This document shows positions 10,862-54,900 of a DNA stretch of 64,000 bases, in pieces (position 1 is the first letter of the stretch; each line of letters starts with the position of its first letter). Location of the stretch: NCBI RefSeq assembly GCF_030028105.1, contig NC_092371.1, positions 129,409,025-129,473,024 on the forward strand, read 5' to 3'. The DNA comes from Mobula birostris. Taxonomy: Eukaryota. Below the pieces are notes generated by a model. It was given only the letters and a program-made list of their open reading frames with translations. It ran no database searches and was not told the DNA's origin. Position numbers and translations under genes: made by a program.

Positions 10862-11949
10862 AAATAATAAAACAATTTAATGAGCACATTTAGGCTTAAT
10901 TAATATTTGTTTAAATAGAACCTCACACTCCACCTCACAAAACACTAATCTATTTTCAGACCAGAGGTATACATACAAACTATTTCCAACTTCGATGCAT
11001 GAACAATGAAGACAATCTCAGCCTATTACTCCAGATGGCTAGCATGGAGGTTTAATGAGATAGACAAGACAGAGGTTCAGTATATTCATGAAATAATGCA
11101 AACTAGGGGTTATAAAGTGTAACCTATCGCTACTCAGCCAGCTGTGGAAAGATAACAAATAAATAGGTATGACAAATTGCCTGGAGTCTTAAGATCTGAT
11201 GAGAACAGTTATAAGCAACTTCCTTTACTATAAAACTCTAGTCTCTGCATTTCCTGCAAGCTACAACTCCTAACAAATGTAAATGCTAAACTGACTGCAC
11301 TATTGTTAAATACTGCAACATTAAGTTTAATTGGTCACGTTAGAGTGCTGGGTTGAAAGTCATTAGAGACACACAGCACAGAAACAAGCCCTTTGGTCCA
11401 TTTAGTCCATGCCAACCATCAATCATCCACTTACACCAATCCTATATTAAACTGATACATTGGCTTATTATTGTCACGTGCACCGAGGTATAGTGAAAAG
11501 ATTTACTTGCATGCTTCAGTCCTGCCGTTAGAAGACTGGTAAACAGTCGCCTAGTACAATAAGATGTATGTGCAGTAAGGAAGACAAATTTTTCACTGAA
11601 CTTTGGAACAAATGGCAATAATAGACCAATTTACCATCCAAACAGATCATTTCATCGCATTAACACAGCAAGGCTGTACAAGGGAAAAACAAAAAGCAGA
11701 ATAAAGCGTACAGAGAAAATGCAATGAAGGCAGACAATAGGTAAAGACTCCATTTTGGGGTGTAAACGTTTCTTCCCTCTTACATTTTTTTAAATGAATT
11801 TTATCTGTAGCAACATGGTTCAACTTGAAGCATGCTGCTTGACTTTTGGGACAGTGCTGTGGGGGTATGGCGGCTGCAGAGAGTTAATAACTACATTAGA
11901 TCTTGCCCAGGGTTGCACAATTTGTACACTAAAAGTTTAGCTGCTTAAC

Positions 11950-12215
11950 AGCTGGAGCTAAGAATCCACACATCTTTCCATGGACTCACCGCAGTTTCCA
12001 CACAGTTACAATTGTTGACTCCTATGTTTGCATTACAAAGGCTGCTGGCAAATCCTGCAATCCAAAAGGATAAGCATTGCCCTGAGAAAGCTTGCAATCC
12101 ACATATCCCGCTACTCGGGAATTATCACCGTCTAAACCTGGAGTTCCTAGAATACACATTGTCACTCCTGTGTTTGATGAGCGGCTGTGAGACATTAGCA
12201 CCCAGTCTGACATTT
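11950..12215. promoter_or_regulatory. candidate Nodal-responsive lefty enhancer (FoxH1 x3, Sox-Oct composite, Smad motifs)
   Basis: AATCCACA at 11963 and 12096, AATACACA at 12151; GTTTGCATTACAAAG at 12026-12040; lies in non-repeat sequence. Confidence 0.6.
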
Positions 12216-12672
12216 GGATGGCAACTGATTCTGACTTGACTTTGGGATGCAGAGTGAAAAACAACACTGGATACAAACAAGCTCTGTGAAAACATTACAC
12301 TTATGGGCAGTGTTTTCTCCTCACAGATGCTTCTCTCTGACAAACAAAGTGGCTGGGCAAGATGCATTTAAAACAACATTTTAATTAAAGTTTGCAAGGC
12401 CAACATTTAATGTTTCTGAATTATGTGGCTTAAAAGATTGCAAATACTAGGTTCAACAGGTTTAAATTTTAAAATTGATTCCCCTGCTGTCTGGGTAGGA
12501 ATGAATTTGCTGATCCTTACTCCAGGCCTTTCGATAAAAATGAATGCTCTTGTGGGAAGGGCACCATGGGTGCTGGTGGAAGCAGACACATTAGCGGAGT
12601 CTAAAGGGCTGTAGATAATACATGAATATTCAGGCTGTGACTTTGATTTCACATGATGATGACACAGATATC

Positions 12673-14320
12673 ATGGGTGATGGACCTACTCACGTGATGT
12701 ACACCATGGACTGATGGAACTTCCCCAGCGATGTACACCATGGACTGATGGACCTTCTCCAGTGATGTACACCAAGGATTGATGGACCTTCTCCAGTGAG
12801 GTACACCATGGACAGGTGGACCTTCTCCTGTGATGTACACCATGGTCTGATGGACCTACTCCAGTGATGTACACCATGGACTGATGGACCTTCTCCCGTG
12901 ATATACACCATGGACTGATGGACCTTCTCCCGTGATATACACCATGGACTGATGGACCTTCACCCGTGATGTACACCATGGACTGATGAACCTTCTCCAG
13001 TGATATACACCATGGACTGATGGACCTACTCCCATGATGTACACCATGGACTGATGGACCTACTCCGGTGATGTACATCATGGACTGCTGGACCTTCTCC
13101 AGTGATGTACACCATGGACTGATGGACCTTCTACAGTGATGTAAACCATGGACTGATGAACTACTCCTGTGATATACACCATGGCCTGATGGACCTACTC
13201 CTGTGATGTACACCATGGACTGATGGACCTTCTCCTGTGATATACACCATGGACTGATGGACCTTCTCCAGTGATGTACACCAAGGACTGATGGACCTAC
13301 TCCCGTGATGTACACCATGGACTGATGGACTACTTCTGTGATATACACGATGGACTGATGGACCTACTCCTGTGATATACACCATGGACTGATGGACCTT
13401 CTCCCGTGACGTACACCATGGACTGATGGACCTTATCCAGTGATGTACACCATGGACTGATGGACCTACTCCAGTAATGTACACCATGGACTGATGGACC
13501 TACTCCCGTGACGTACACCATGGACTGATGGACCTTCACCCGTGATATGCACCATGGACTGATGGACCTTCACCCGTGATATACACCATGGACTGATGGA
13601 CCTACTCTAGTGGTGTACACCATGGACTGATTGACCTTCTCCTGTGAGATACACCATGGACTGATGGACCTACTCCACTGATGTACACCATGGACTGATG
13701 GACCTTCTCCAGTGATGTACAGCAAGGACTGATGGACCTACTCCCGTGATGTACACCATGGACTGATAGACCTACTCCCGTGATGTACACCATGGACTGA
13801 TGGACCTACTCCCGTGATGTACACCATGGACTGATGGACTACTCCTGTGATATACACCATGGACTGATGGACCTTCTCCTGTGATGTACACCACGAACTG
13901 ATGGACCTACTCCTGTGATGTACACCACGAACTGATGGACCTACTCCTGTGATATACACCACGAACTGATGGACCTACTCCTGTGATATACACCATGGAC
14001 TGATGGAACTACTCCTGTGATATACACCATGGACTAATGGACCTACTCCCGTGATATACACCATGGACTGATGGACTTTTCCAGTGATATACACCATGGA
14101 CCGATGGACCTTCTCCTGGGACATACACCATGGACTGATGGACCTACTCCTGTGACATACACCATGGACTTACTCCAGTGATATACACCATGGACTGATG
14201 GACCTTCTCCTGTGATATACACCATGGACTGATGGACCTACTCCAGTGATGTACACCATGGACTGATGGACCTTCTCCAGTGATATACACCATGGACTGA
14301 TGGACCTACAGCCGTGATAT
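12673..14320. repeat. 34-bp satellite/minisatellite, left block (~48 units)
   Basis: Consensus GTGATGTACACCATGGACTGATGGACCT(T/A)CTCC(A/T/C), repeated head-to-tail. Confidence 0.97.
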
Positions 14321-16912
14321 AGAACATAGAACGGTACAGCACAGTATAGGCCCTTCGGCCCACAATGTTGTGCCGACCCTCAAACCCTGCCTCCCATATA
14401 AGCTCCCACCTTAAATTCCACCATATACCTGTCTAGTGGTCTCTTAAACTTCACTAGTGTATCTGCCTCCACCACTGACTCAGGCAGTGCATTCCACGCA
14501 CCAACCACTCTCTGAGTAAAAAACCTTCCTCTAATATCTCCCTTGAACTTCCCACCCCTTACCTTAAAGCCATGTCCTCTTGCACTGAGCAGTGGTGCCC
14601 TGGGGAAGAGGCGCTGGCTACCCACTCTATCTATTCCTCTTATTATCTTGTACACCTCTATCATGTCTCCTCTCATCCTCCTCCTCTCCAAAGAGTAAAG
14701 CCCTAGCTCCCTTAATCTCTGATGATAACGCATACTTTCTAAACCAGGCAACATCCTGGTAAATCTCCTCTGTACCCTTTCCAATGCTTCCACATCCTTC
14801 CTCTAGTGAGGTGACCAGAACTGGACACAGTACTCCAAGTGTGGCCTAACCAGAGTTTTATAGAGCTGCATCATTACATCGCAACTCTTAAACTCTATCC
14901 CTCGACTTATGAAAGCTAACACCCCATAAGCTTTCTTAACTACCCGATCCACCTGTGAGGCAACTTTCAGGGATCTGTGGACATGTACCCTGAGATCCCT
15001 CTGCTCCTCCACACCACCAAGTATCCTGCCATTTACTATGTACTCTGCCTTGGAGTTTGTCCTTCCAAAGTGTACCACCTCACACTTCTCCGGGCTGAAC
15101 TCCATCTGCCACTTCTCAGCCCACTTCTGCATCCTACCAATGTCCCTCTGCAATCTTTGACAATCCTCTACACTATCTACAACACCACCAACCTTTGTGT
15201 CGTCTGCAAACTTGCCAACCCACCCTTCTATCCCGCCATCCAGGTCGTTAATAAAAATCACGAAACGTAGAGGTCCCAGGACAGATCCTTGTGGGACACC
15301 ACTAGTCACAATCCTCCAATCTGAATGTACTCCCTCCACCACCACCTTCTGCCTTCTGCAGGCAAGCCAATTCTGAATCTACCTGGCCAAACTTCCCTGG
15401 ATCCCATGCCTTCTAACTTTCTGAATAAGCCTACCATGTGGAACCTTGTCAAATGCCTTACTAAAATCCATATAGATCACATTCACTGCAGTACCCTCAT
15501 CTATATGCCTGGTCACCTCCTCAAAGAACTCTATCAGGCTTGTTAGACATGATCTGCCCTTCACAAAGCCATGCTGACTGTCTCTGATCTGACCATGATT
15601 CTCTAAATGCCTATAGGTCCTATCTCTAAGAATCTTTTCCAACGGCTTTCCCACCACAGACGTAAGGCTCACTGGTATATAATTACCCGGACTATCCCTA
15701 CTACCTTTTTTGAACAAGGGGACAACATTCGCCTCCCTCCAATCCTCCGGTACCATTCCCGTGGACAACGAGGACATAAAGATCCTAGCCAGAGGCTCAG
15801 CAATCTCTTCTCTCGCCTCGTGGAGCAGCCTTGGGAATATTCCGTCAGGCCCCGGGGACTTATCTGTCCTAATGTATTTTAACAACTCCAACACCTCCTC
15901 TCCCTTAATATCAACATGCTCCAGAACATCAACCTCACTCATATTGTCCTCACCATCAAGTTCCCTCTCATTGGTGAATACCGAAGAGAAGTATTCATTG
16001 AGGACCTCGCTCACTTCCACAGCCTCCAGGCACATCTTCCCACTTTATCTCTAATCGGTCCTACCTTCACTCTTGTCATTCTTTTTTTCCTCACATTATT
16101 GAAGAATGCCTTGGGGTTTTCCTTTACCCTACTTGCCAAGGCCTTCTCATGCCCCCTTCTTGCTCTTCTCAGCCCCTTCTTAAGCTCCTTTCTTGCTTCC
16201 CTATATTCCTCAATAGACCCATCTGATCCTTGCTTCCTAAGCCTCATGTATGCTGCCTTCTTCCACCTGACTAGATTTTCCACCTCACTTGTCACCCTTG
16301 GTTACCTTCACCCTACCATTCTTTATCTTCCTCACCGGGACAAATTTATCCCTAACATCCCGCAAAAGATCTCTAAACATCAACCACATATCTATAGTAC
16401 ATTTCCCTGCAAAAACATCATCCCAATTCACACCCGCAAGTTCTAGCCTTATAGCCTCATAATTAGCCTTTCCCCAATTAAAAATTTTCCTGTCCTCTCT
16501 GATTCTATCCTTTTCCATGATAATGCTAAAGGCTAGGGAGCGGTGGTCACTGTCCCCCAGATGCTCACCCACTGAGAGATCTGTGACCTGACCCGGTTCA
16601 TTACCTAGTACTAGATCTAGTATGGCATTACCCCTGGTCGGCCTGTCCACATACTGTGACAGGAGTCCGTCCTGGACACACTTAACAAACTCTGCCCCAT
16701 CTCAACCCTTGGTGCCAATCAATATTAGGGAAGTTAAAGTCACCCATGGTAACAACCTTGTTATTTTTGCACCTTTCCAAAATCTGCTTCCCAAACTACT
16801 CCTCTGTATCTCTGCTGCTACCAGGGGGCCTACAGAGTACCCCCAATAGAGTAACTGCTCCCTTCCTGTTCCTGACTTTCACCCATATTGACTCAAAAGA
16901 GGATCTTGCGAT
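14321..16912 (-). mobile_element. young 5'-truncated CR1 LINE (ORF2 partial endonuclease and RT) inserted in the satellite
   Basis: ORF pieces PTRGNAILDLVL, KSPGPDGIFPR, DFSKAFDKVPH, GVPQGSVLGP, KFADDTK, LVRPHLEYCVQFWSP; (TTCTATG)n-type 3' tail at 14321; a few frameshifts and stops. Confidence 0.93.
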
Positions 16913-18250
16913 GTGATATACACCATGGATTGATGGACCTACTGCTCTGATGTACACCATGGACTGATGGACCTTCTCCAGTGATATACACCATGGACTG
17001 ATGGACTACTCCTGTGATGTACACCATGGACTGATGGACCTTCTCCAGTGATGTACACCATGGACTGATGGACCTGCTCCTGTGATGTACACCATGGACT
17101 GATGGACCTACTCCAGTGATGTACACCATGGACTGATGGACCTTCTCCTGTGATATACACCATGGACTGATGGACCTACAGCCGTGATATACACTATGGA
17201 TTGATGGACCTACTCCTGTGATGTACACCATGGACTGATGGACCCTCTCCTGTGATGTACACCATGGACTGATGGACCTTCTCCAGTGATGTACACCATG
17301 GACTGATGGACCCTCTCCTGTGATGTACACCATAGACTGATGGACCTTCTCCAGTGATGTACACCATGGACTGATGGACCTTCTCCAGTGATGTACACCA
17401 TGGACTGATGGACTTTCTCCAGTGATGTACACCATGGACTGATGGACCTACTCTTGTAATGTACACCATAGACCGATGGACCTGCTCCAGTGATATACAC
17501 CATGGACCGATGGACTACTCCTGTGATGTACACCATGGACTGATGGACCTTCTCCAGTGATGTACACCATGGACTGATGGACCTGCTCCTGTGATGTACA
17601 CCATGGACTGATGGACCTACTCCAGTGATGTACACCATGGACTGATGGACCTACTCCAGTGATGTACACCATGGACTGATGGACCTTCTCCTGTGATGTA
17701 CACCACGAACTGATGGACCAACAGCCGTGATGTACACCATGGACTGATGGACCTTCTCCCGTGATGTACACCACGAACTGATGGACCTACAGCCGTGATA
17801 TACACCATGGACTTACTCCAGTGATGTACACCATGGAGTGATGGACCTACTCCAGTGATGTACACCATGAACTGATGGACCTACTCCTGTGATGTACACC
17901 ATGGACTGATGGACCTTCTCCCGTGATGTACACCATGGACTGATGGACCTGCTCCTGTGATGTACACCATGGACTGATGGACCTTCTCCCGTGATATACA
18001 CCATGGACTGATGGACCTTCTCCCGTGATGTACACCATGGACTGCTGGACCTTCTCCCGTGATGTACACCATGGACTGATGGACCTTCTCCCGTGATGTA
18101 CACCATTGACTGATGGACCTACTCCCGTGATGTACACCATTGACTGATGGACCTACTCCCGTGATGTACACTATGGACTGATGGACCTACTCCAGTGATA
18201 TACACCATGGATTGATGGACCTTCTCCCGTGATGTACACTATGGGTGATG
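16913..18250. repeat. 34-bp satellite, right block (~39 units)
   Basis: Same unit as 12673-14320. Confidence 0.97.
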
Positions 18251-21913: not shown

Positions 21914-22208
21914 ATGACCAGAATCAACAGCAGCCTGACCACTATGCTGCCTGTCTTTGTTCTGTTGGTGCTGCAGACAGCCCCAATGAGTGGAGTCTCC
22001 CACGACAGCATTAAGAACGCCATGCTTCGTAAGCTAGGCCTAAGTGAAGTGCCACAGATGGAGAAGAGGGACCTGGAGAGGGTGGTGGTGCCAACACACC
22101 TCCGGAACAAGTACATGTCCATGCTGAAGCTGCACAAGGAGAAGGAGAGGAGGCGGAGAGCCCTGCCCAGCCTGGCCAGCATTTTGCGAGGAATTACAGG
22201 TAATGCAG
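21914..22208 (+). CDS. lefty: lefty (left-right determination factor, TGF-beta family) exon 1: signal peptide, start of prodomain, RRRR convertase site
   Basis: Translates MTRINSSLTTMLPVFVLLVLQ...LRKLGLSEVPQMEKRDLERVVVPTHLRNKYMSML...RRRRALPSLASILRGITGNA, a typical Lefty N-terminus. Donor GCAG|gtaaac after 22208. Alternative in-frame ATG at 21944. Confidence 0.93.
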
Positions 22209-23096: not shown

Positions 23097-23340
23097 GCAC
23101 AACCGGAGAAGTGCTGTACTCAGACCCCACCAGGCAGAGGCTGGTTTTCGACATGAAGGGGCTGATCCCTGACAACAGCGAGGTGACCATGGCAGAGCTC
23201 AAGCTCTTCAAGAAGGGCGTCCACAAGGGGGAGCTCCCTCCCAGAAAATACAGCCGGCCAGTCAACAACGCCAGGGTCAGTGTGTACTGGGTCAAGATCC
23301 TGGCCGATGGCACCAACAGCACCTCGCTCATCGACTCCAG
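23097..23340 (+). CDS. lefty: lefty exon 2 (prodomain)
   Basis: Acceptor ccccag|GC; GTTGEVLYSDPTRQRLVFDM...EVTMAELKLFK...RPVNNARVSVYWV...TSLIDSR; donor AG|gtaagg; phase consistent with exons 1 and 3. Confidence 0.95.
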
Positions 23341-29364: not shown

Positions 29365-29601
29365 GTTGGTTCCTATCCTCAACTCTGGATGGGAAAGCTT
29401 GGACGTCACACAGGCCGTGTACTACTGGATGAAGAATGCAGACACACCCATGCACCTGGAAATCTGGATTGAGGCAGAGCGAATGGGCAGCTACGCAGCT
29501 GAATTAGCCAAACTGGTGCACTTCACCACTCAAAGCGCTGCTGACCAAGTACTAGGCAAACCAGAATTAGTCCTCTATACTCTCAACCTTGAAGAATATG
29601 G
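29365..29601 (+). CDS. lefty: lefty exon 3
   Basis: Acceptor ttgccag|G; RLVPILNSGWESLDVTQAVYYW...HLEIWIEAERMGSYA...GKPELVLYTLNLEEYG; donor GG|gtacgt. Confidence 0.95.
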
Positions 29602-30672: not shown

Positions 30673-30994
30673 GAGCACTGGCGACTGTGGTGCAGAGAAA
30701 GGCAGGACATGCTGCAGGCAGGAGCACTTCATTAGCCTCCGGGACCTGCCGTGGACCCAGTACTGGATCATCGAGCCCCCTGGCTACCAGGCCTTCCGCT
30801 GCCTTGGGGGTTGCAAGCAGCCACAACGGCCCTTTGACTACGGAGAGAGGAGCTGTGTGGCAGTGGAGAGCGCCTCGCTGCCCGTGATGTACCTGGTGAA
30901 GACGGGCAATTACACAGAGATCGAAGTGGCTGAGTTCCCCAACATGATAACCGAGAAGTGTGGCTGTACCACCAACAACGTCTCGGTCATATAG
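30673..30994 (+). CDS. lefty: lefty exon 4 (TGF-beta domain, stop codon)
   Basis: CCRQEHFISLRDLPWTQYWIIEPPGYQAFRCLGGC...SCVAVESASLPVMYLVK...EVAEFPNMITEKCGC, TAG at 30992-30994. It lacks the dimerisation cysteine and the long helix, which is the Lefty hallmark. Exons total 1098 nt = 365 aa plus stop. Confidence 0.96.
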
Positions 30995-40483: not shown

Positions 40484-40653
40484 CTTTAAGCACAGAGTCC
40501 TCTAGTCGCTCTGACATCTCGTCCAGCTGCTGCTCGTACTGTGGGTCAGTGAAGTAGTGCTTAGGCTCGGCGAGCCTGCGCTGCAATCGTTCCAGTCGCC
40601 TCTGCTCTTTCTCTGTCTCCCGCTCTGCCTGCTTCTTTATCCATTCAGCCATT
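40484..40653 (-). CDS. sde2: sde2 exon 4 (coiled coil)
   Basis: [57 protein letters not shown]; phases consistent. Confidence 0.95.
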
Positions 40654-42250
40654 CTGCACAAAAGCAGACGCAGTCCGTAATAGGCTGTCCATGGTCAAGT
40701 TCATTTTGCCCACAAGTTGGAAATATACACAAGTATCACTCAGCTTAGTTGGACTTTTGAATTTAACAATATTATGTGAATGCATTCATATGTATGGTGT
40801 CCATAAGCGGCTCTCAGAACCCAGGGACAAGCTATACACGACTATAAACCTATCAGCTATCTTATCAACTATCACCTCTCCTGCTTCTTCCTTGGTCAGG
40901 TAGACAAGTAATGTAGCAAAGCTGCTTAACAACAAGCAATAAACGCTGTAAACTTCAGAAGAAAGCCCATCATGTTTTTTCAGTACTTGGATAACCAACA
41001 GCACTTCATAGCAACCTGAAGTGTCAACTCAATTATTTCTTCACCATAGCAAACATGAAACTAATTATCATGCAGCAAGCTCCTGCAAACAGCAGTGAAG
41101 TAATGACTAAATAACATTTATACTGATATCCATGTGACCAAGGAATCTTCAAAGAAAGGCATTGGTTTTATGACCTATTAAAAACAGTCATTCCACAGCA
41201 TTGTACTGGCACGGAACCTGAGATATGTCAATTGCAGAGTGAGAGGTTCTGACTTCAACACAAAATGCTGGAGGAACTTGGCAAGTCAGGCAGCATCTAT
41301 GGAAGGGAATAAACAGTCGATGTTTCGGGCCAAGACCCTTCATTTTGTGTGTGTTGCTCTACATTGCCAGCATCTGCAGAATCTCTTGCGACTCTGACTC
41401 AAAGAGTGCTTCTAGGGGCAACAATGACTGACCTTAGTCAACTCATATCAGTCAGTGTCGCCCAAAGACCCATAGATGTTGGAAATCAAGGTTTTTGATC
41501 CGAAGCATTGGTTTCTTGTTCTACAAGTGCAGAGTACTTCCAGAATTTTTGTTTTTACTTCATCTCGGTAAGCTTCTTAAGTCAAAACCCAATCTCTTCC
41601 CAGCCAGTAGATAATGAGGACTAACAGGCAACAAGCTCTTCACTGAACAGAGGCAAGTACATCAGTTCAATTCATGGATATTCACCTTGATTAGTTCACA
41701 AAAAGCAGTTAATCAGTTCACCAGATGAACACTTGTACTCCTGCCCAAACCTTCTCAACAATTGTTCACTGCTCAGTGACACAAGATGTCATCGCAATGA
41801 GCCAAGTGGAGGTGCTTTCTCCTCCACCCAAGTATCTTCAGCTGTGAGAACTGAGTCAAGTCCTGTAAAATCAACCAGCAAGGTGCCACTTCAAGGCCAG
41901 TCAGTTCACATGAATGGACAGGAAATGGCAAGCTGATCTCACCCACCTGTCACGGTATCATCAGTGGAGTCTAGGATGGCTCTTTCATGTCTGGCAAAAC
42001 TGTCACAGAGGAAATCTGGACTACCAGATTCAAGAACAGCTTCTTTCTCACTGCAGACTCCTGAACCAATCATCTCTATCACATCCCCTCCCTGGGGGTG
42101 CTACCACTCTCTGGCTTCTCTCTCTCAGCTAATCTGTTGTCACTTCAGCATTTCTTATGTACTACAATGCATTGTCATATTTGTTATCATGTATAACGTT
42201 TAGTCTCTGAACATGTAAGCAAGCAAATTCATCACACTGTGCGTATAAAT

Positions 42251-42354
42251 GACGATAAACTAATCTGCGTCTGAGACTAAGACTGAGAGCAAGCTCTCAA
42301 CAGACGATAAACTAATCTGCGTCTGAGACTAAGGCTGAGAGCAAGCTCTCAACA
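42251..42354. repeat. 52-bp tandem duplication (1 mismatch)
   Basis: gacgataaactaatctgcgtctgagactaag(a/g)ctgagagcaagctctcaaca x2. Confidence 0.95.
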
Positions 42355-42365
42355 GAAAGCCTTAC

Positions 42366-42477
42366 GCTTTTTCATGGTTTACATCCCGCAGCCTCCTTCC
42401 ACTCAAATCTCGGCATGCCTCTCGATTTGTAGTTTTCTCGATCTGTGCTCCCAGTGCACGAAGCATTGACCCGAAAC
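42366..42477 (-). CDS. sde2: sde2 exon 3
   Basis: [38 protein letters not shown], the highly conserved SDE2 motif; cag| acceptor and |gtaag donor. Confidence 0.96.
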
Positions 42478-42616
42478 CTGCAGAATGCAAAGACTGAAAA
42501 TGTTATAAAAGCTGAAGGTTCTACTAGTACTCACACTGCTATTCAATCAGTTAAAGAGTTACATCACTGCTGGAGATGATCTAGTCCATTACAGCCAAAA
42601 AAAAGAACTACTCATA

Positions 42617-42830
42617 AGCAAGAGAAAAGCTGCAGATGCTGGAAATCCAAGCAACACACACAAAATGCTGGAGAAACTTAGGCCAGGCAGCACCTATGGA
42701 AAAGAGTACAGTCGATGTTTTGGACTGAGACCCTTCATTGATGAACTGGCTTGGCCCAAAACGTCAATTGTTTACCCTTTTCCACAGATGCTGCCTGGCT
42801 GCTGAGTTCCTCCAGCATAATGAATGTGTT
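42617..42830. mobile_element. palindromic Penelope-terminus-derived mini-element (similar copies at ~8445-8585, 27750-27960, 41258-41390, 53380-53525)
   Basis: Arms atgctggag..ccaggcagca.ctatggaaaag and cttttccacagatgctgcctggctgctgagttcctccagcat face each other around hammerhead-core remnants. Confidence 0.65.
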
Positions 42831-43809
42831 ATTCAGCCCAATCCCATTTCTGAACTGAGCTGATAACCCGATAGTTTCACTCCTCTTCCAGATGTGCATT
42901 TCTGCCTCCACCTAGCTTTCAAGCAGAGAGTTCTAGATCACCACCTTCTTGTGAAATCATTTCCATTAACATTCCTCATTATGTCTTTCAATTACCTTAA
43001 ATCTGGACTTGTTAATTGACTGCTACGTCAAGGGAAATGTGAGGAATGTCTTTCTGTTCATAACTAAAGATCCTCAGCTCCTGGGAACATTCCTACAACC
43101 CCCTTCTGCCCTGTCTCTCATGCTTCCAGTAATCCAGCATGATCTCACGGTTCTTGTACTCTTTGCCTTGGCTAGAAAGAGGAACATCTCTTACTTTAAT
43201 GATCCCATTTACCATTTGTATTATCATCAGGGGCAAATGAACTCCAGGACTTCTCTGCCTGTGTATTCTCTAGCCTTGCTTGCATCCGACAAATACATTC
43301 ACACTGAACTCCAGTTGTCTACCTAGCCACTGATATCTCCCTGCAATCTCCCATGTTCCCTTTAATTATCAACCATATAGCCAATTCCTTTCTCATAGCT
43401 CCCACAGCCAAGTGTAACTCGTAATATGGAACGTAATAGAACATAGGACAGCACAGGATCAGGCCTTCTGGCCCATGAGGTCCGTGCTGACCATAATAAC
43501 TAACTGACACTGAAACTGTTTCTTTGACTGGCGGTCTGTCAACTTTACTTCTCTGCTTTCTGTCACTGAGATGATTTTTTTTTTAACCCAAATGGGTCTT
43601 ACCCTTTGGGTTTTTACTTTACTGATCAATGTGATATGCAAAACCTTGAAAAAACTAAAATATACTCACCAAAATGTGTATCCTTATTAACTTTAAAATA
43701 ATCTATTGTCAAGCTATGATGGTCCTTTGGCTGACTGTCCTCTATCAACATCGATTCTTTAAATGGTGAGTTATGCTTTAACTAGAAGGCATTCATGCCC
43801 ACAAATGAG

Positions 43810-44220
43810 TCATAGAGTAATACCACAGGAAAACAGGCCCTTCAGCCCAACTCATCCATGCCAACCAAGCTAGTCCCATTTGCCTATATTTGTTTGGCCC
43901 ATGTGCCTCTAAATCTTTCCTTTCCAAATGTCGTTATCATACCTGCCTCAGCCACAATCGCTGGCAGCTCATTCCATTGACCCACACACAACCCTTTGTG
44001 GGAAAACGTTGGCCCTTTTAAATCTTTCCCATGCCACTTTAAACATATTCCCTCAAGGTCTAGGTTCCCTTCCCCTGGCAGAAAGTCTGTCTGCATTCAT
44101 CCTATCTATACCTCTCATGATTTTATACACCTCTACAAGGACACCACTTAATCCCCTACGCTCCAAGGAATTAAATTCTAGCCTGCTTAACATCTCCCTC
44201 TTATTCAGGCCTTTGAGTCC
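43810..44220 (-). mobile_element. CR1 LINE 3' end
   Basis: SLERRGLSGVLVEVYKIMRGIDR, WNELPAIVAEAG. Similar CR1 3' remnants at ~31380-31700, 32550-33660, 34180-34420, 36150-36560, 57220-57470, 58020-58390, 59140-59350, 61700-62105 and 62640-63150. Confidence 0.7.
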
Positions 44221-44714
44221 TGCAACTAGAAGACAACATGTTGAAGACACGATGAGATTTACTCAATTTATTGCTCCCCTCACTTTTTGCATAACTGCTC
44301 CTCATCAGCAGTGTGTGTGCTCTGACAAAATCTGCAGCAAAAGGCATTTAGAAAATGGTGGCCAGAGCCTCCTCTGTTTTTGCCATTGCTCTGTTTAAGC
44401 AATAAGACAATAGAATTGGGTGCTGTTACACAAGAAATAATACAATGACCTTACAAATCACACAAGATACTTGTAGTCTTATAGAGCAGCTCGTGCTTCA
44501 TACCTGGCTTAGCCAGACCAAACACTCACGCAGTTCAGAGATTGAATCAGATGAAATTCCAAAGGATGAGTATCAAGTTTAGACAGGAGAGGGTATTATT
44601 ATTGCATCCTCCCCCACCCCATCACTTTAATACAATAATTTCTATGGAGTCACAAGACCTCACCACTCACAAGAACAGTGACACTAATGCAAACAGCAGA
44701 CTCTCCTATTTTAC

Positions 44715-44832
44715 CTCCTTTTCCTCCGACCAGTCTCGGTTCCACACTGTAAACCGCCCCATCATGAAGGTCTGCATCTTCAGCAACCAGCTTTCCATTA
44801 CATTTTAGGTAAATATCGGCAGCAGGGAAGCC
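44715..44832 (-). CDS. sde2: sde2 exon 2 (end of UBL domain, GG|KGG processing site)
   Basis: GFPAADIYLKCNGKLVAEDADLHDGAVYSVEPRLVGGKG; ag/gt boundaries present. Confidence 0.93.
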
Positions 44833-47069
44833 CTATATTCAGAGAGTATAGGTGGAATAAATCACATTTGGCTGAGTCCATACATGCCCTTCACATTGCT
44901 TAAAACATAACACACATTTACTGCAGAGGACACAAAACCAATAGGGATGGGGAGGTGCGGGGGGGGGTGTTCAGAGAATATGGATCAGGCACACTGGGAG
45001 GGGAGACAGAATGAGGGCACAAGATTAAACAAAAGAATGATCGAGGAACATACTGTGGGTCAGGTAGGATGTCAAACTGTGAGGATGTTGTTAAAACATT
45101 TGAATGAGAAATCTCTCATTGGATTCCTTGGTTAATAACAAACATTCTGCAGGAGGAATTCAGCAGGTCAAACAGCACCTGCGGGAGGAAAGGAATTGTC
45201 AAAGTTTCAGGTCGAAACCCCACACAGGACTCCACAGTCCTGTTGCAGTGTTTGGACCCAAAACTTACAATTATTGTCAGGCTACATATCCTTGGAGACA
45301 TCCCGTGTCAGGGCTGCACTTCACTGGGAAAGTTCATTTCCCACAAGATAGTATGCATAAGGCTTGCATACTCAAGCTGTTTTAATTGGAAAACCCTTTG
45401 CTATAAAAGGAAAGGGACATATTGCATTGCACCGCAAATATTTGGACATTAAAATTGTGGGCCACTGTTCCATTACTGTGGCTTGGAATAGATACTAAAC
45501 TGAACCTCTAATGCTGCCTGAAGCATCTGAGAAACATCTGTATGCACAACTGTGTGCTGAGACAAATAACAGCCCTGGCTACCAACACACCAGGCTTGCA
45601 AATGGAAAGCATCAATCTGAAATGACACTGCTTCTTGCTCCACAGATGCTGTCTGACCTGCTGAGTATTTTGCTGTTTACAGAAACTTGCTGTACATAAA
45701 TAAATACATACAGCCACTTGAAACACAGGAGTTAAAATAATTCATTGGCTGTAAAGCGGTGGAACAGTCAGAGGGAACATCCTCTACAAACAAGTCTTTT
45801 GACACCACTAATCTGTCTCCTGGACTATGCTCACCTCTCCTTTGGTCTCTGTGTCTCTCAGGGCCTTGATACTCTCCCTTCCCTCAGGTCACAGACCTGC
45901 TCCTAGACACCATGTTCCCACGGACCGAGATTCATGATGCAGGGATTGGCTCTCCTCCCTTCACTCCTAACCCAGAACATCCGAAGCAGGGAGCTGGAGT
46001 CACCCAACATTAGTGCCATTTTCCTGCACCATTAATTCCTTGGTATTCAAAAACCTGTTGATCTCATATTTGAATGATCTGCGACTGAGAATTTGAAGAT
46101 TGAATGCATTGTGAACAGCCTATCCCATATTTGGAGAACTCCTCCAATCACCCTGTATACAGGTTAAACTACCCAAGAATATTTTACATATCAACAAGTC
46201 ACAGAATCATTCTCCAGTGAAATAGTCCCTTTGGCTCACGAAGTTTATACTGACCATTTTCCACTTAACTGTACTAACCCCATTAGCTAGCATTTAAAAT
46301 GTAGCCTGCCAGGTCTCTTGGCAATGCAAATGCTCGTCCAAATACTTGTTAAATAGTCAGAATGGCTGCCTCTACCACTTTCTCAGTGTATTCATGATGG
46401 CAATCCCCTTCTGGGGAAACCAGTCAATCGTCACATACAATGGGACTGGAGTCTTCAGCTGAGGAAACAGTGGCAGGCTGCAACAGCTTTGCCAGGAGCA
46501 CAGGAGGCCGAAGGGTGACTTTCATAGGTTTACATATCACAAGGGCATCGGTAAGATGGTAGGTGTGACTGAGCAACCAGAGAAAGTGGTGGAGCTGGGC
46601 GGAAATACAATACTTGAAAGAAATTTGGGCAGGTTCATGGATGGGTGGGAAAGATTTTGAAGGATACAGATCAAAAGCAACCAAATGGGAGTAACGCAGA
46701 TTTGCCCTTGGTGCGAGGTCTTCAACCCGAAATATTAACAAATCATTTTCTCCCACAGGAGTTGCTCAACCTGCTGAGTTCCTCCAGCAGAATGGTTTGT
46801 TGCTTCAAACTCCAAGAGATCAGTCAAACTTGACTTTTCTTTCCTCGGTATTATTGCATAGAACCACACAGAAGGCGGCCACATCCGTGTCCTCCCTTTT
46901 TCCCCACCTAAACCCAATCTTGTTTTCCCACAATGGAACTGTACAGCCCTGAAGTCCACTCAGCCCACAATGCTGTACTGATCTTAATGCTAATTTACAC
47001 TAAATGCCCTCTTCCAGTGCATCATTCACATCCCTCCATGTGTCCATCTGAAAGCCTCAAACTCCAAAC

Positions 47070-48170
47070 CTCTGCTCTCAAATGCATCTCCCCCATTTCA
47101 CATATCTGCTCTCAAACGCATCTCCCCCATTTCACGTACATCTGCTCTCACTCCATCCTCCCGCCACCCCACTAGTAATAGGATTCCCCTGGTCCTCACC
47201 TACCACCCCACCAGCCTCCGGGTCCAACATATTATTCTCCGTAACTTCCGCCACCTCCAATGGGATCCCACCACTAAGCACATCTTTCCCTCCCCCTCCT
47301 CCACTTTCCGCAGGGATCGCTCCCTACGCGACTCCCTTGTCCATTCGTCCCCCCCCATCCCTCCCCCCTGATCTCCCTCCTGGCACTTATCCTTGTAAGC
47401 AGAACAAGTGCTACACATGCCCTTACACTTCCTCCCTTACCACCATTCAGCGACCCAAACAGTCCTTTCAGGTGAGACGACACTTCACCTGTGAGTCGGC
47501 TGGGGTGATATACTGCATCCGGTGCTCCCGATGTGGCCTTCTATATATTGGCGAGACCGCTTTGCTGAACACCTACTCTCTGTCCGCTAGAAAAAGCAGG
47601 ATCTCCCAGTGGCCACACATTTTAATTCCACATCCCATTCCCATTCTGACATGTCTATCCACGGCCTCCTCTACTGTAAAGATGAAGCCACACTCAGGTT
47701 GGAGGAACAACACCTTATATTCCGTCTGGGTAGTCTCCAACCTGATGGCATGAACATCGACTTCTCTAACTTCCACTAATGCCCCACCTCCCCCTCGTAC
47801 CCCATCTGTTACTTATTTTTATACACACATTCTTTCTCTCACTCTCCTTTTTCTCCCTCTGTCCCTCTGACTATACCCCTTGCCCATCCTCTGGGTTTCC
47901 CCCCCTCCCCCTTGTCTTTCTCCCTGGGCCTCCTGTCCCATGATCCTCTCATATCCCCTTTGCCAATCACCTGTCCAGCTCTTGGCTCCATCCCTCCCCC
48001 TCCTGTCTTCTCCTATCATTTCGGATCTCCCCCTCCCACTTTCAAATCCCTTACTCACTCTTCCTTCAGTTAGTCCTGACGAAGGGTCTCAGCCTGAAAC
48101 GTTGACTGTACCTCTTCCTACAGATGCTGCCTGGCCTGCTGCGTTCACCAGCAACTTTGATGTGTGTTGC
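47070..48170 (+). mobile_element. young Penelope-like element fragment (GIY-YIG endonuclease and terminal hammerhead) in sde2 intron 1
   Basis: CKQNKCYTCPY...RRHFTCESAGVIYCIRCSRCGLLYIGET; terminus contains CTGACGA...GAAAC at 48076-48100. Confidence 0.88.
48071..48108 (+). ncRNA. minimal hammerhead ribozyme motif, second near-intact copy
   Basis: tagtc CTGACGA agggtctcagcct GAAA c GTT gactg. Confidence 0.55.
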
Positions 48171-48499
48171 TTCCACTACTACCCATAATAACCCATCCCG
48201 GGTACCTACTACGACATAAACAAATACTTGTGAGGCACTTCAGTCTGCAGCTTGTACATTTAGGTACCTAAATGGCTTTTAATCATAGTGATTGTACCCG
48301 GATCTCCTCTAGCAACGAATTCCAGATAATAACCTCTCTCTGTATTTGGAAAAAAACTTACTCCTCAGATAGTTTTAAAACTCTTCGATCTCACCCTAAA
48401 CCCTCTTGCTCCTGATACCCCTACCGGCGCAGAAAGATTTTACATACTGTACGCTCTATCACATTAAACTCTGATTTAACCAACCACCACCCTGTGCAG

Positions 48500-49020
48500 A
48501 CAGCTGTTGCTCCCCGGTTGTCCCCGAACCAAAATTCACCCCAACACCCGCTGCCCCTCCCCGTTCCCGGGCGCTGACACTTTGGACACTTCAAGTTCGA
48601 ACCCTGGGCCCCGTCCCACGCTGCTCACTCACTTGTTGGTGGAAGCGCAGCTTCAGCTCCAGGCTGGAAGAGCCAGGCGGCAGCGTTAGAGCCACCAGGC
48701 CGGTCCCCAACCCGCGTACCCACACCTCCATGACAGGCCTGATCGACGCGCAAGCGCAGGCGCACCCGCGCGATGACGGTGGAGACGTCAACGGCGCAGG
48801 CGCACCTGCCCAGTGACGTTCGAGAGCCGACAGCGCAAGGCGGCGGCTGGGAAAGCGAATGCGCATGTGTACACACGGCAATTGGCGTGGAACTGTGCAG
48901 GGTCTGATCGGACATTGATGCACACCGCTGACGTCGTTCACATGACGTCGCGGAATAACGCGTCACGTGACACGGGTGACATTGCGCGGGAAAAGCTTTA
49001 TTTCCCGCGCGGTGGGGAGA
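48500..49020. promoter_or_regulatory. sde2 CpG-island promoter (NRF1, CRE, USF E-box, paired E2F motifs)
   Basis: GCGCAAGCGCAGGCGCA at 48748; GCGCAGGCGC at 48794; TGACGTCG at 48929 and 48943; GTCACGTGAC at 48962; GCGCGGGAAA/TTTCCCGCGC at 48984 and 49001. Confidence 0.75.
48633..48731 (-). CDS. sde2: sde2 exon 1 (N-terminal ubiquitin-like domain)
   Basis: MEVWVRGLGTGLVALTLPPGSSSLELKLRFHQQ followed by a gtgagt donor; lies in a CpG-rich promoter region; phase 0 matches exon 2. Confidence 0.85.
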
Positions 49021-51851
49021 TGAGCTTGGTTTGTTGCAAAGGGAGTGGGAACTTGTTCCAAACTTACACAGTAACACAAAGCTAGTACTGGAAAATAGAA
49101 ATAAAAGCAAGGAAATGTTGTATTCAAGCAGTAGATGCTTTCTGCATTTTAGACATATTGCTAGTCTGATACTGTATGAAGCAAAGTTAGTAAATATGGT
49201 TTGTTTTGCATTCATACGAAATATACCAACATCTTTCAATGCTGTAAAGATGAATGAAATAAAAAGGAATTGGAAAATGATCTTAGCCAGCATCTATGAC
49301 GAGGGTTAATGTTCTACAAACAGTAGAGGTTGAAGATAAATACATAGTTTATGCAATTTAGAGGGATAAAGTAAGGAACAGGGAGAAAGGGGGAAAAAAA
49401 CAAAATAACAGCAAGTGCTGGAAAAAAGCAACATGCATGGAGAGAGAAAGGTAACTTGTTGGAACTGTAAAAGAGACTTTAAGCTTCAGAGAAAGGGACA
49501 GGATGCCTGGATGGAATAAAAGATTAGACCCAGGTGTCTGGAGGTGTGAGGCAGCACTCTACCAGATGCACCACCATACTGTCCCAGAGTAGAAAGCTGA
49601 GCAAGGTGGAGTATGGCTGTTCAGGTTATGAAAATTTGCACTTACAAAATTCACAAATCACTACCCAATAATTTGAAATACAGAATAAAATTCACTCTTA
49701 CAGAATTTACATGGGGTAAAATGTAAGCAAATGTAAAATGTACTTTGACAGAGTAGATTTGCTTTCTGGAAAATTGTTTTCTAGGAATTTCCTTGGATGA
49801 GCCGTGACGATGTGGGTTGTAGACTGAAAACTGGGAAGTGGCACTTTAGAACAATGTAGGCACATTGGGCTGAACAACTGCCTTCAGTACAATGATTCTA
49901 ACGAGAAGTTGGTTTTATTATTGTTGAACATCAGCAGTGAAACCTCTACTAGGGCGTTACAATTGTGACACCTACCAAGATACGGTTTGCGTTCCTTCCA
50001 CCCCAATCAGCGTGTCGAGGTAGTGAAGGGGAAGGGGAAAGGGCAGTGCAGGCTGGCAAATGAGGTGCAAGGGCCATGACCTGACTGAGTTACCCCGTGA
50101 GAGTCTTAGCACAGCGGGGTAGAAGCTGTCCCAGTGTCTGGTGGTATGCGCAATCAGATTTTGTTATTTCTGCCCAATGGGAGGGAGGGAGGGAGATGAG
50201 GGAGTAACTGGGCTGGGAGGGGTCCTTGATTATTTTGGCTGCTTTACAGAAGCGATGAACATTGTAGACATATTCCATGGAGAGGAGGCTGGTTTTCATG
50301 ATATGCTGAGCTGTGTCCAGAACTCTCTGTAGCTTCTTGCCTACAAAAGCTTTCTATAAAAGCTTTATGGGATATATTGCATTGACCGAAGCCTTAATGT
50401 CTTTTCCAAATGATAATCTTGTGCATAAATAAACAAACCTCCCTAACCACCAGCTGACAGGTAGTTTAACTTTGGTCTTCCTGCATATTGAACTTAAATA
50501 TCTTATTCCAAGACCCTCCTTATTCATTTCCCATTTCAGTTCCCGTCGCTGTGCTCCAGCCTGTCTCCTGGGCCTATGTAAAGGAAAGTTATAAATTCCC
50601 GAGGAGACTTGGGTCTCCTAGTTGTGAGGGACTATATGACGGGGGGGGGGGGGGGGGAGATGTTTCCTTTTGTGGGGAGATATAGAACAAGACGTCTGGG
50701 TGGGGGGGGAGCAAAGGGTCAGCACCGAAGAAAGAGATGAGATGACAGGTTTTTAGAAATCAACTGGGTCTGAGGACAGTCAGGAATGGGCTATAAACAT
50801 TCCCACCTTGAAGAGTAAATGTAACAGTGTGCAGCTCAAACAGAGAGGGGACAGCCTAGCACTCCATTTCCAGGGAGTGAGGCTGAGCAGACGGGAGGGG
50901 GGAGTAATGAGAGAACTTTTCCATCAGATTTAACAAAGGTCCAAAACTAAACAGTGGTGCAACCGCTGCCTCACAGCGCCGGCGACCCGGAATCAACCTT
51001 GACCTCCGGCGCTGTCCGCACCTCCTCGCTACCACAGGTCTCCCGAGTGCTGCAGCCTCCCCCAACGTCCCAGCTAAAGTGGCTGCTGTAAGATAGCTCC
51101 AAAGACCTCATTCCCTGGGAGAGGGAGATGGGATGGGCCACGCCCTGTGATAGCCCGAAGAAAGACCGGCCCAGGACACAGGGCTCCGCTGAACTGCTGT
51201 TCACAGCTCTACCCTAAGCACCAGTGCAGATTGGCAAACAAGCAGCAAAAATAAGACGGGCCAAATGGCCCGTCTCTGCGCTGCATAGTTGGAATCCTAT
51301 CTGAAACCAATGCCGGAAATGTGGTAGCCGCTCTGTACACAGAAACTCACACAAACATTCTAATAGTTATCCATAATCTCTTTTATCTCCAGAATTTAGA
51401 GATAAATGTTGACCTCAGGACCGCAGAGACGGCACGGCATCGAGAAATAGTGCTATGGGATCTCCTCAGTTCTGAGAGTACTTTTAGAATCGCCCTGGAA
51501 GGTCAAATCCCCACTTTTCGGTTAACGAGCTTCCCGTGCCCGTGGAAACACGGGACAGTCTTCGGCGATGGCGGGGAGAGGTGAAAAGAAACCGAGCTTT
51601 GCGTGCTCTTTAAAACGCCATCAAAAGCAAAGCTGCCGGGACGTTTCTCGGGGCCGCGCTGCTGGAAGGTGTATCAGCCCAGCAGTGTAGGGACGAGGGA
51701 AAGAGAGCAGGGGCTGACCGCTCTCCCCGCCGGGCGAGCCCCTCGCCTTTCGGACTCGGGCTGCGAACGCACCCAGCCCGGTGGGTGTGTGCCCTGGGCA
51801 CAGAGGAGGGAGGGAGGGAGGGTTGTTCGCAGGAGCTTCTGGGAAGCCCTC

Positions 51852-51950
51852 GACAGCCATTTTCTGCAATTGTGTTTTCCAGCGAGAGAGGAATATCTGC
51901 TGTTTTTGCTCGAAAAGAGGCTCGGACGGAGGGGAACCAAGAGCGAATAG
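51852..51950 (+). other. h3f3a: h3f3a non-coding exon 1 within a CpG-rich promoter (~51400-52200)
   Basis: CAGCCATTTTCTGCAATTGTGTT (YY1-type CCATTTT; resembles the mammalian H3F3A 5' leader as I recall it); strong donor TAG|gtgagt after 51950. The 5' end is approximate. Confidence 0.7.
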
Positions 51951-54900
51951 GTGAGTATCAGTGTGTGTTGTATTAATTCGACAGACGACAACTTTCACAG
52001 GCACGTCAATGCAGTCTTTCTCCACAGTTTACCGCCCCCTTGTATTTACGTTGTAGCTGCTCTTTGTGAGGGCTAACGCTGCTTTAACAAACTTTAAGGT
52101 ATCCATTTTGTGCCAGCAACATTGTAACGAAACTCGCGCGTTCCTGGGTCAACGTTCCAGTTTCTTCTCACTTGTATCTTCGCTCTCTCTCTGTGAAACA
52201 CCCCCTCTCTGCGCTCTGCGCCGTATTTAGATCGCTCTTAATGTTATTGTTAGTTTATTTCTCTTTTCTTTTATTATTGTTTACAACTCCAACCCCAGAA
52301 AGTGTTTCGATTTCGTTTCGTCAATTTACAAGGACTTCCGTAATTGGTGTTTATAAGCGTGTTGCTTGAGGGTATATGGGCTTACTTTTAGCATTAGTTG
52401 CAAAACAGAGAGGCGAAAGAGGAATATTTAATTTCGCTTTGTTTTCCTCGTCACCTTCACCATCTTTGCTTGCTCTCTCTCCTTTGTTGCATCGCCCATT
52501 TTAACCACGGGTGTCCTCTATAGTTCTCATTCAACACAACTGTGTTCTTGTTTTTAAGTTTGTTTTTTTTTGGGGAGGTGAGTGAGCAAATATTAAAATT
52601 GATCTGTTTTATATTTTGTAACACTCGACCAGACTGTTACAGAATGTAAATTGTAAGGCGGGAGTTGGATCAGTTGCTGTTTCAAACTGGGCTGCTTGTG
52701 TAGTCTTAAACAAGCTATTCGCTTCCCACAGCACTCATCTCTACACCAGGCTGAGAATGTGTTGTATTTACTTGTATTTGGTGTAGTTTTTTTTTCGTAT
52801 CCATTTCAATGATTGGTGCAAAAAATGCAGTTCACATTCGATGCGTCCCCTCCACTTCCTGCACCTATCGATTACCAACACTGGTAGCCCGTGTTTTCTA
52901 TTGCAGATAACAGGAACGGATTGCGTGGGAGTTGGAATGGAAAAATGGCCAAAAGTTTAAAGAACAAAAATAGTGAATAGTTCTAAACAGGGAGGTGGAA
53001 TTTTAGTTGGTTCAGCACCGTTTCCCAAAATGTACGATAATGATTCAATGCCTTTTCGGCTTAACGGAGATGCCTTTCATCCAATAAACAGAAATTGGGA
53101 AAACTTTCTCAAAATATCTGAGAACTTCTCACCCAGGTAGAGGTTATACTTGAAACCTAATTTCTGCATTAACGTGTTGTCACCTAATTCAGTTGTAAGA
53201 TAGTGACCTCTCTTTAACACCCTCCTGGCAGTAAAACTCCAGTAATCCAACACACGTGGGATGTTGAGACTGGGAGATCTCTGAGTATTGGATGTTTATC
53301 CACAACCTCCCCTGCAGTTTAATTGAAAATGTTACACTGCGGTATAATTGCCCAGTGAACCAGACAAGTTTTTAAGGGTAAACGACAGGAATTCTGCAGA
53401 TGCTGGAAATTCAAGCAACACACATCAAACTCACGAAGGGTCTCGGCCTGAAACGTTGACTGTAGTTCTTCCTAGAGTTGCTGCCTTGCCTGCTGCGTTC
53501 ACCAGCAACTTTGTGTGTTGCTCAAGTTTTTAAGGGTACTGCGTGCGTGAGCTGAGCCTGCGGAGAGGTTGGCAAATGTTCCCTGGTGGTCTGGATTGTA
53601 AACCACCAGGAATTCTGGATTATCAGATAGTGGATTATCGGAGTTCTGCTGTAACATTGGACCCCATACATTGTGCTGGTAGTGTCGACTACTTGCTTTC
53701 CTGTTGTCAATGGTGAATTTGCTGATGTGTCAACTGTTGAGTTGGGGGGTGGAAGATACTGTCAAGTGAAGATTGTTCAGATTCTGTGGTGGTTACCACT
53801 GGAGAGGCGAGGGGTGGGGGAAGACCAGCCTCTGGTAACCTTGTATTGAGCTGAAGGTGACATTCTATATGCCAGACTGGCCTCTTGAAATGGCCCAGCC
53901 CACATACCGAGAGGGAACACCTGCCAACTGACACATTCACCATTATGAATGCCCATTTGGCCGTGGGAGGCGTCTCTTTCTGGGGTGGGGAGTGCAAGGG
54001 GGCAGGAGGAGTCGACCTTTGTTGATATTGGAGACTGCATATGCTGGTTGGAGGGAAATGGACAGATAATGTTGGGTTGACCCACCCTGGCCATGCTTCT
54101 TTCTCCTGTCGGGCAGAGACACAACAGCTCTGAGAGTTCGTACCACCAGGCACAAGGACAGCATCTGTCCTGCTGTTCTGAGACTCTGACGTGGACCTCT
54201 CCGACACTCTTGATTGTTCAGTCTGTCTTGTCATCGCCCTTGAACTTTGCTTAATTCCACTGCACTTTCCCTGTAACTGCATTATTTTGTTCCTTTTTCA
54301 CTACTTCAGCGTACGTGTGTCTGGATTGATCTGTCTGAATAGTATGCAAACAAAGGCATTTCACTTTATCTTGATACACAGGAGGATGATGAAACTGATA
54401 CAAAACGTAATTGTATCAGGAGGGATTGGCACAAGGCCAATTCCAGCAGCGTTCTACACGTGGTGTGACCAAGTTAGATTGTGTAGGCTTGTGAATTGAG
54501 CATTGTAATTTATCCATTATTTTCACGCTCTCCCCTCCCGCCTGTAGTTTGTTAGTTTTTGCCGCTGTTGCTACTTCTAACTGGTGCTCTCCAGTCGTTC
54601 AGGGTTAACACTTCACACTCTCCAGTGCAACTCACCAGGGCCCCAGTTCCAGCTGTAACTTGGCAAAATTACTGGGAATTTTATCTGACATCAAAAAGTT
54701 CTAATTAAAAGTGCATTGGGAAATTCGAACAAAGAATAAGTTGAAAGCAAATGGGGCTAGGTTAGATGGGTAACCTGGTTAGAAGGGCTGAGTCCCTCTT
54801 AACCTCCCAGTTAGTTCTGACGAAGGGTCCCAGCCCAAAACGTCAACTGTACCTCTTCCTATAGATCCTGCCTGGCCTGCTGCGTTCACCAGCATTTTGT

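Follow-up and report, generated by a model that had tools for sequence, protein, structure and literature searches.

A candidate FoxH1-Smad2 enhancer of LeftyB in the ray Mobula birostris and a diverged twin element at LeftyA

Feedback between Nodal and Lefty is central to germ-layer formation and left-right patterning. In a 64,000-nucleotide stretch of the Mobula birostris genome (hereafter, the window), three FoxH1 motifs lie close together upstream of a lefty gene, and the question is whether they belong to an enhancer through which Nodal signalling switches this gene on. The original prediction had proposed an element of the type of the left-side asymmetric enhancer (ASE) of lefty. Our analysis suggests, with a probability of about three in four, that the element is a FoxH1-Smad2 Nodal-response (feedback) enhancer of the ray LeftyB gene and that it has a diverged twin at LeftyA.

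FoxH1 motifs and the LeftyB locus

AATMCACA (TGTGKATT on the other strand) is the GK site of FoxH1, a factor that binds such sites and has a Smad-interacting domain in other vertebrates (available text of PMC9701222). FoxH1-dependent enhancers are recognized by at least two clustered copies of this site, and the element holds three within 196 bp, all in the predicted positions and on one strand. The triple was also correctly called improbable by chance: among 1500 dinucleotide shuffles of the 64-kb window, any triple within 200 bp appeared in five and a same-strand triple in one. The window as a whole contains 11 sites (6.95 expected). When 840 letter-permuted motifs were searched, nine gave a triple within 200 bp, six of them in a 34-bp tandem array, two at this locus, and one elsewhere. 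Scaled to a 4-Gb genome, chance triples would number on the order of 200, so the case rests on the adjacency to lefty and on conservation, not on the count alone.

The predicted Smad motifs (GTCT at 12130, AGAC at 12190, GTCT at 12205) exist but are not enriched: the 266 bp contain three such 4-mers, and 1.7 would be expected. The window element has no T-box, Nkx, or Otx motif, and an Rfam search of it gave no match at E values up to 1.

The four exons downstream join into a 365-aa open frame encoding a TGF-beta family protein. Among named proteins, chondrichthyan Lefty sequences are nearest to it, those of devil rays most of all. There are two lefty genes, and the element is duplicated as well, both of which the first reading had overlooked. 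About 90 kb leftward, the other gene runs head-to-head with the first on the minus strand. Exons that we take to be Sde2 lie to the right of lefty (40492..48734, minus strand), and the last Sde2 coding exon lies to the left of the window. With Sde2 exons on both sides, the lefty gene and the element are placed within an Sde2 intron. Given this intronic position, LeftyB is the presumed target gene. A LeftyA-LeftyB cluster with LeftyB nested in Sde2 has been described in chondrichthyans (available text of PMC12344233); in that naming, the gene in the window is LeftyB and the other is LeftyA. Two GC-rich stretches were seen at the right: 48740-49000 is the Sde2 promoter region, and 51600-52000, 3 kb rightward, contains a probable first exon on the plus strand that ends at a splice donor near 51950.

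The element had been placed about 9.7 kb upstream of the TATA box in non-repeat DNA. The distance is right (9.6-9.8 kb), but 5.6 kb of the gap consists of the 34-bp tandem array and a 2.6-kb LINE-like insert, presumably of the CR1 type. Without these repeats, about 4.0 kb remain. The element is thus upstream of Lefty, by 9.6 kb or by about 4 kb when the intervening repeats are discounted, a position like that of the ASE in the available text of PMC9634164.

Table 1. Coordinates of the element, its twin, and related features. Plain numbers are positions in the window; C numbers denote contigs, and L numbers denote loci of the genome (G000).
Feature	Position	Strand	Remarks
FoxH1 motif 1, AATCCACA	11963..11970	+	outside the block common to the LeftyA twin; not conserved
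FoxH1 motif 2, AATCCACA	12096..12103	+	identical in the LeftyA twin; best conserved of the three sites
FoxH1 motif 3, AATACACA	12151..12158	+	without aligned counterpart in the LeftyA twin
GTCT, Smad-type 4-mer between sites 2 and 3	12130..12133	+	aligns with GTCT of the LeftyA twin
AGAC (12190) and GTCT (12205), Smad-type 4-mers	12190..12208	+	present in the sequence
Core common to the LeftyA twin	11987..12133	+	107/154 columns identical
LeftyA twin	G000:C3:129377697-129377846 (L013:8673-8822)	-	same orientation relative to its gene
TATA box of LeftyB, TATAAAA	21763..21769	+	from the sequence
LeftyB exon 1 (coding part)	21914..22208	+	TGFb_propeptide match
LeftyB exon 2	23097..23340	+	homogenised with LeftyA
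LeftyB exon 3	29365..29601	+	not homogenised; 79-94% protein identity to ray, shark, and chimaera Lefty proteins
LeftyB exon 4, mature TGF-beta domain	30673..30994	+	PF00019; 82% to the second lefty copy
Upstream Sde2 exons	~48632-48734, 42410-42477, 40492-40654	-	from translations; right of lefty
Last Sde2 coding exon	C3:129405618-129405794	-	PF13297, E 5e-25; 3.2-3.4 kb left of the window
34-bp tandem array	12678-14318 and 16913-18244	.	Tandem Repeats Finder
LINE-like insert splitting the array	14319-16912	.	pieces match repeat sequence elsewhere in the region
LeftyA exon 2 (L009)	C3:129330.0-129330.3 kb		
31-bp satellite (L010-L012)	G000:C3:129345638-129368310		upstream of LeftyA
Second FoxH1 pair near LeftyA (L014)	G000:C3:129379543-129379705		inverted
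FoxH1 forkhead exons (L030)	G000:C1:105116309-105116800		
Nodal intron 1 FoxH1 pair (L043)	G000:C22:37290129-37290238		
Pitx2-like last intron FoxH1 sites (L052)	G000:C5:117291581-117291950		
Second Nodal-like gene (L044-L045)	G000:C9:147611001-147631000		

A twin element upstream of LeftyA

The element would pass as single-copy in a search of the genome DNA with 11850-12350, which returned only the self match, but a diverged paralogous twin exists. It was missed by blastn over the 264-kb region, was noticed by reading the sequence, and was then aligned by the Smith-Waterman method. The alignment with 11987-12133 is collinear with a score of 95, and neither the other tiles (996 scanned, 264 kb) nor 3000 shuffles exceeded 43. 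Masking the FoxH1 sites left a score of 68, again against 43. When the LeftyB side was compared with the LeftyA side (220 tile-strand pairs, non-repeat DNA), nine scores were higher than that of the twin, all of them from exons, so that no other non-exon match ranked above it; the next non-exon matches, at 74, look like repeat scraps in mixed orientation. The LeftyA and LeftyB promoters did not align (score 29). A pattern built from both copies occurred exactly twice in the 4.0-Gb genome, at the twins themselves, and the reversed control did not occur, which, at this degree of similarity, speaks against a repeat family.

The twin carries a FoxH1 pair of its own, with the two sites 117 bp apart; its distance upstream of LeftyA is 36 kb, or about 12 kb when satellites are discounted. 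Site 2 and the GTCT behind it are in place in both copies, and this is the only FoxH1 site at a matching place; the second site lies to the left of site 2 in the LeftyA twin and to the right of it in the LeftyB element. The three predicted sites are all present, but the conserved part is the pair of sites 2 and 3 together with about 100 bp to their left.

FoxH1 clusters (at least two AATMCACA in 200 bp) were concentrated between the two genes. Three fell in the 62.6 kb beyond the satellite, where 0.23 were expected (P about 0.002, for a region picked after the fact), and none fell in the flanking 82 kb and 85 kb.

A second FoxH1 pair near LeftyA, 1.7 kb beyond the twin, is inverted, with the sites 155 bp apart and two AGAC between. 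Its sites (C3:129379543 and 129379698) were considered as a homologue of the element and set aside, as they scored 32 and 29 and were unaligned; the pair may be an extra LeftyA enhancer, a candidate from its motifs. Upstream of LeftyA lies a 22.7-kb satellite made up of about 737 copies of a 31-bp unit. Some units contain AATACACA, giving about 27 FoxH1-like words between the LeftyA twin and the promoter. These matches, at C3:129345-129368 kb, are satellite units and were excluded from the cluster counts. Each lefty gene is separated from its own element by a different young tandem array.

Gene conversion, age of the duplication, and conservation in related species

Exon 2 of LeftyA and LeftyB was identical at 237 of 237 aligned coding bases, and the identity stopped a few bases into the introns. 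Exon 3, unlike exon 2, was never homogenised: its DNA identity is 64%, with 9/24 at fourfold sites. This difference was reflected in trees of 29 proteins, which are built on about 80 residues and lack an outgroup root. The exon 3 tree separated an A group (99/94) from a B group (97/91), each holding shark, ray, and chimaera sequences, and the exon 2 tree paired A with B within species (93-100% in four other elasmobranchs). On exon 3, a duplication confined to rays was rejected (p-AU 8e-5), and a separate duplication in chimaeras was not (p-AU 0.19).

By the exon 3 sequences, the LeftyA/LeftyB split predates the split of sharks and rays, and the silent sites of this exon have since been saturated. 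At such an age, a non-coding block of 70% identity is best read as selected. The twin has likely been retained by selection, possibly refreshed by conversion. The available text of PMC12344233 leaves undecided whether one duplication or separate ones in sharks, rays, and chimaeras took place, and the exon-wise trees bear on this question of one duplication with later conversion versus separate duplications. The exon 3 data appear to favour a single origin, at least for sharks and rays.

A fuller history seems to us evenly balanced between true and false. LeftyA and LeftyB would have arisen once, before the shark-ray split and perhaps before chimaeras, and each copy would have retained its own version of the ancestral Nodal-feedback enhancer, with turnover of FoxH1 sites around a fixed central site; repeated conversion would have replaced exon 2 and portions of exons 1 and 4 and spared exon 3. 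If this is true, the twins are the oldest traceable Lefty enhancer and offer a direct test of how the feedback switch is divided between two paralogues. The divergence of chimaeras is dated to about 400 million years in the available text of PMC12344233.

Conservation was compared in seven other organisms, coded B-H, whose DNA overlaps 11780-12520; of 23 runs, seven were compared, one for each organism. The cross-species index finds near-identical DNA only, so the comparison is one of close relatives, with no shark or chimaera among them. In B, F, G, and H a single contig spans 11947-12225, and sites 2 and 3, GTCT 12130, and AGAC 12190 were unchanged in all four. GTCT 12205 was too near the end of the compared stretch to be read in two of these species. 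The three bases after site 3 differ in three of the four, site 3 itself being unchanged. Within 12026-12158 (133 bp), B, F, G, and H showed 1, 4, 3, and 3 differences, respectively. Site 1 is broken in E and G (A11964 to C) and intact in the close organism B. F and H carry two and three further differences near the stretch ends, which are unplaced. D, which covers part of the core only, has six differences in 12002-12147, some of them listed, and C covers the flank only; missing cover was not scored as absence.

Conservation of the sites had been offered as a check of the prediction. Sites 2 and 3 were intact in all four relatives and site 1 was broken in two, and at a flank divergence of 4-9% the test is weak: the probability that two of three sites remain intact by chance is 46-79%. 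The rate of change was lower in the core at p 0.008, 0.056, or 0.21 depending on the flank used, with core and flank counts from different species, and a slower-evolving core is only suggested by these sequences. The shared block tolerates change, as bases common to both twins at 12015, 12025, 12054, and 12059 differ in F, G, and H. By hand reading, the window base equals the LeftyA twin at four of the five readable positions of 12015-12059 where F, G, and H differ, a pattern that could reflect either changes in the F/G/H lineage or a trace of conversion. Sox-like (12011) and forkhead-like (12025) motifs are present in the window, and both are altered in three of four related species. Other species have 10-12 extra bases near 11978-12003, and the inserted letters that were listed form no replacement FoxH1 site.

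Comparable loci, proposed function, and alternative readings

The genome contains a FoxH1 gene, traced by its forkhead exons only, both of which matched FoxH1 first in the PDB; the two exons are split by a very short intron. Nine other loci were examined, and FoxH1 pairs within 200 bp occurred only at a Nodal gene and at a Pitx2-like gene, in the latter within the last intron. The Nodal pair (sites 102 bp apart, at 120-222 bp of intron 1) matches sites 2 and 3 of the lefty element in order and strand and is a candidate Nodal ASE. The Pitx2-like last intron has three FoxH1 sites, of which two are separated by 51 bp and enclose GTCT/AGAC, and these form a candidate Pitx2 ASE. The Pitx2-like label comes from no more than a lead in the ESM Atlas (score 0.85) and from the C-terminus of the protein. 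Six control loci (120 kb, 14 sites), which from their translations we take to be three TGF-beta-like genes, one Pitx3-like gene, and two other OAR homeobox genes, had no FoxH1 pair within 200 bp. In amniotes, Nodal intron 1 and the Pitx2 last intron are the positions of FoxH1 clusters (available text of PMC9634164).

For the element itself, the motif, its position, the presence of a FoxH1 gene, and the link to the Nodal target LeftyB were all found as in the Nodal-response class. FoxH1 pairs render the mouse Lefty1 and Nodal enhancers Nodal dependent (available text of PMC5686177). In the catshark, LeftyB is expressed at the posterior margin from the early blastula, and this expression was lost in 3/3 embryos upon Alk4/5/7 inhibition with SB-505124 (available text of PMC4232768). 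Together with the paralogous twin and the Nodal and Pitx2-like loci as in-genome controls, this dependence lends support to the Nodal-response part of the prediction.

We propose that FoxH1 would occupy sites 2 and 3, site 1 being a lineage-limited extra. Nodal/Activin signalling would bring phospho-Smad2/3-Smad4 to FoxH1, with Smad contacts on the nearby GTCT/AGAC, and the 100 bp to the left of site 2 would bind further factors common to both paralogues. The complex would act on the TATA promoter 9.6 kb away and switch on Lefty, the feedback inhibitor of Nodal, and the twin would do likewise for LeftyA. One ancestral enhancer would have been copied with its gene into the Sde2 intron and retained in both copies. 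Activity would be expected at the posterior margin at blastula and gastrula and possibly, at slightly under even odds, in the left diencephalon or left lateral plate.

A narrower form of this explanation, in which the element is specifically the left-side ASE of lefty, must be regarded as tentative, and we would not quite wager on it. Upstream FoxH1 clusters are the conserved position of the Lefty ASE in mouse and reptiles, as judged by manual motif search (available text of PMC9634164), and the catshark 'ScLefty2', a paralogue not assigned to LeftyA or LeftyB, is left-restricted in the dorsal diencephalon (available text of PMC8569936). The likeness in order and strand of the Nodal intron 1 pair points the same way. 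Tissue is not readable from sequence, however, and both the early posterior-margin expression of catshark LeftyB and the early, non-left-right expression driven by the upstream FoxH1 pairs of mouse Lefty1 (available text of PMC5686177) speak against this form. The mouse Lefty1 pairs are active in the inner cell mass and distal visceral endoderm, so the tissue does not follow from the presence of a FoxH1 pair. The element might also be a real lefty enhancer run mainly by other factors on the 100 bp to the left of site 2, with FoxH1 minor or partly incidental. Most of the likeness to the twin does lie outside the FoxH1 sites, as the masked score shows, and site 2 alone is shared in place, site 1 being labile. 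We consider this unlikely: the second FoxH1 site that the twin retains 117 bp away fits turnover under the need for a pair, and in three of four species the first base of the forkhead-like TGTTTGC at 12025 is lost, whereas sites 2 and 3 are unchanged.

It is quite improbable that the element is a non-functional leftover, that is, a chance motif cluster whose likeness to the paralogue stems from a tract of later gene conversion or from a rare repeat common to both. LeftyA and LeftyB have indeed undergone conversion, as the identical exon 2 and the within-species pairing attest, the agreement with LeftyA in 12015-12059 would fit a tract, and chance triples are numerous at the genome scale. Conversion requires prior similarity, however, and the identity ends a few bases outside exon 2, with the promoters and the intervening DNA unaligned; the shared pattern has no third copy, and the best score in a further 200 kb at the nine loci was 46. 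Even harder to credit is a shared upstream non-coding exon, alternative promoter, small RNA, or regulatory element of Sde2. The element lies within an Sde2 intron, and the LeftyA twin contains the TATA-like word CTATAAAG, but this word is lost in the window copy, Rfam gave no match, and the twin is oriented with lefty about 28 kb beyond the last Sde2 coding exon.

If the FoxH1-Smad2 reading is right, the ray element likely functions in the manner of the mouse Lefty1, Lefty2, Nodal, and Pitx2 FoxH1 enhancers, an analogy drawn from motif and position. The mouse Lefty2 ASE and the ASE-like clusters of reptile Lefty (available text of PMC9634164) likewise consist of a cluster of AATCCACA-type sites upstream of Lefty, and the ray genome has corresponding clusters in intron 1 of Nodal and in the last intron of the Pitx2-like gene. 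Unlike them, the ray element is duplicated between head-to-head paralogues and lies inside an Sde2 intron; the comparison is by motif and position, not by sequence. Mouse Lefty1 has a distal enhancer (DE, -10 kb) and a proximal one (PE, -1.5 kb), both transgene-tested and active in the inner cell mass and distal visceral endoderm (available text of PMC5686177). Each has two FoxH1 sites kilobases upstream, as in the ray, and Nodal dependence as a feature of the mouse side; the likeness is one of motif layout. The gene arrangement and gene conversion in the ray are as described for the chondrichthyan LeftyA-LeftyB cluster in PMC12344233, whose main text contains neither 'enhancer' nor 'FoxH1'. 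We found no description of a cartilaginous-fish Lefty enhancer in the literature searched, which included few subscription journals and no supplements. This class of FoxH1 enhancer is well known and expected here, and the parts worth following are the twin and the exon-wise pattern of conversion. The element provides a test piece of 150-270 bp that comes with its natural twin, and could be used to ask if the FoxH1 switch was present in the jawed-vertebrate ancestor and how the difference between LeftyA and LeftyB arose.

FoxH1 pairs do not mark every expected target, because a second Nodal-like gene had no strict FoxH1 pair in 20 kb. Single strict FoxH1 sites lie in its intron 1 and just upstream of its exon 1, and the gene is closer to southpaw and Xenopus Nodal2-type proteins.
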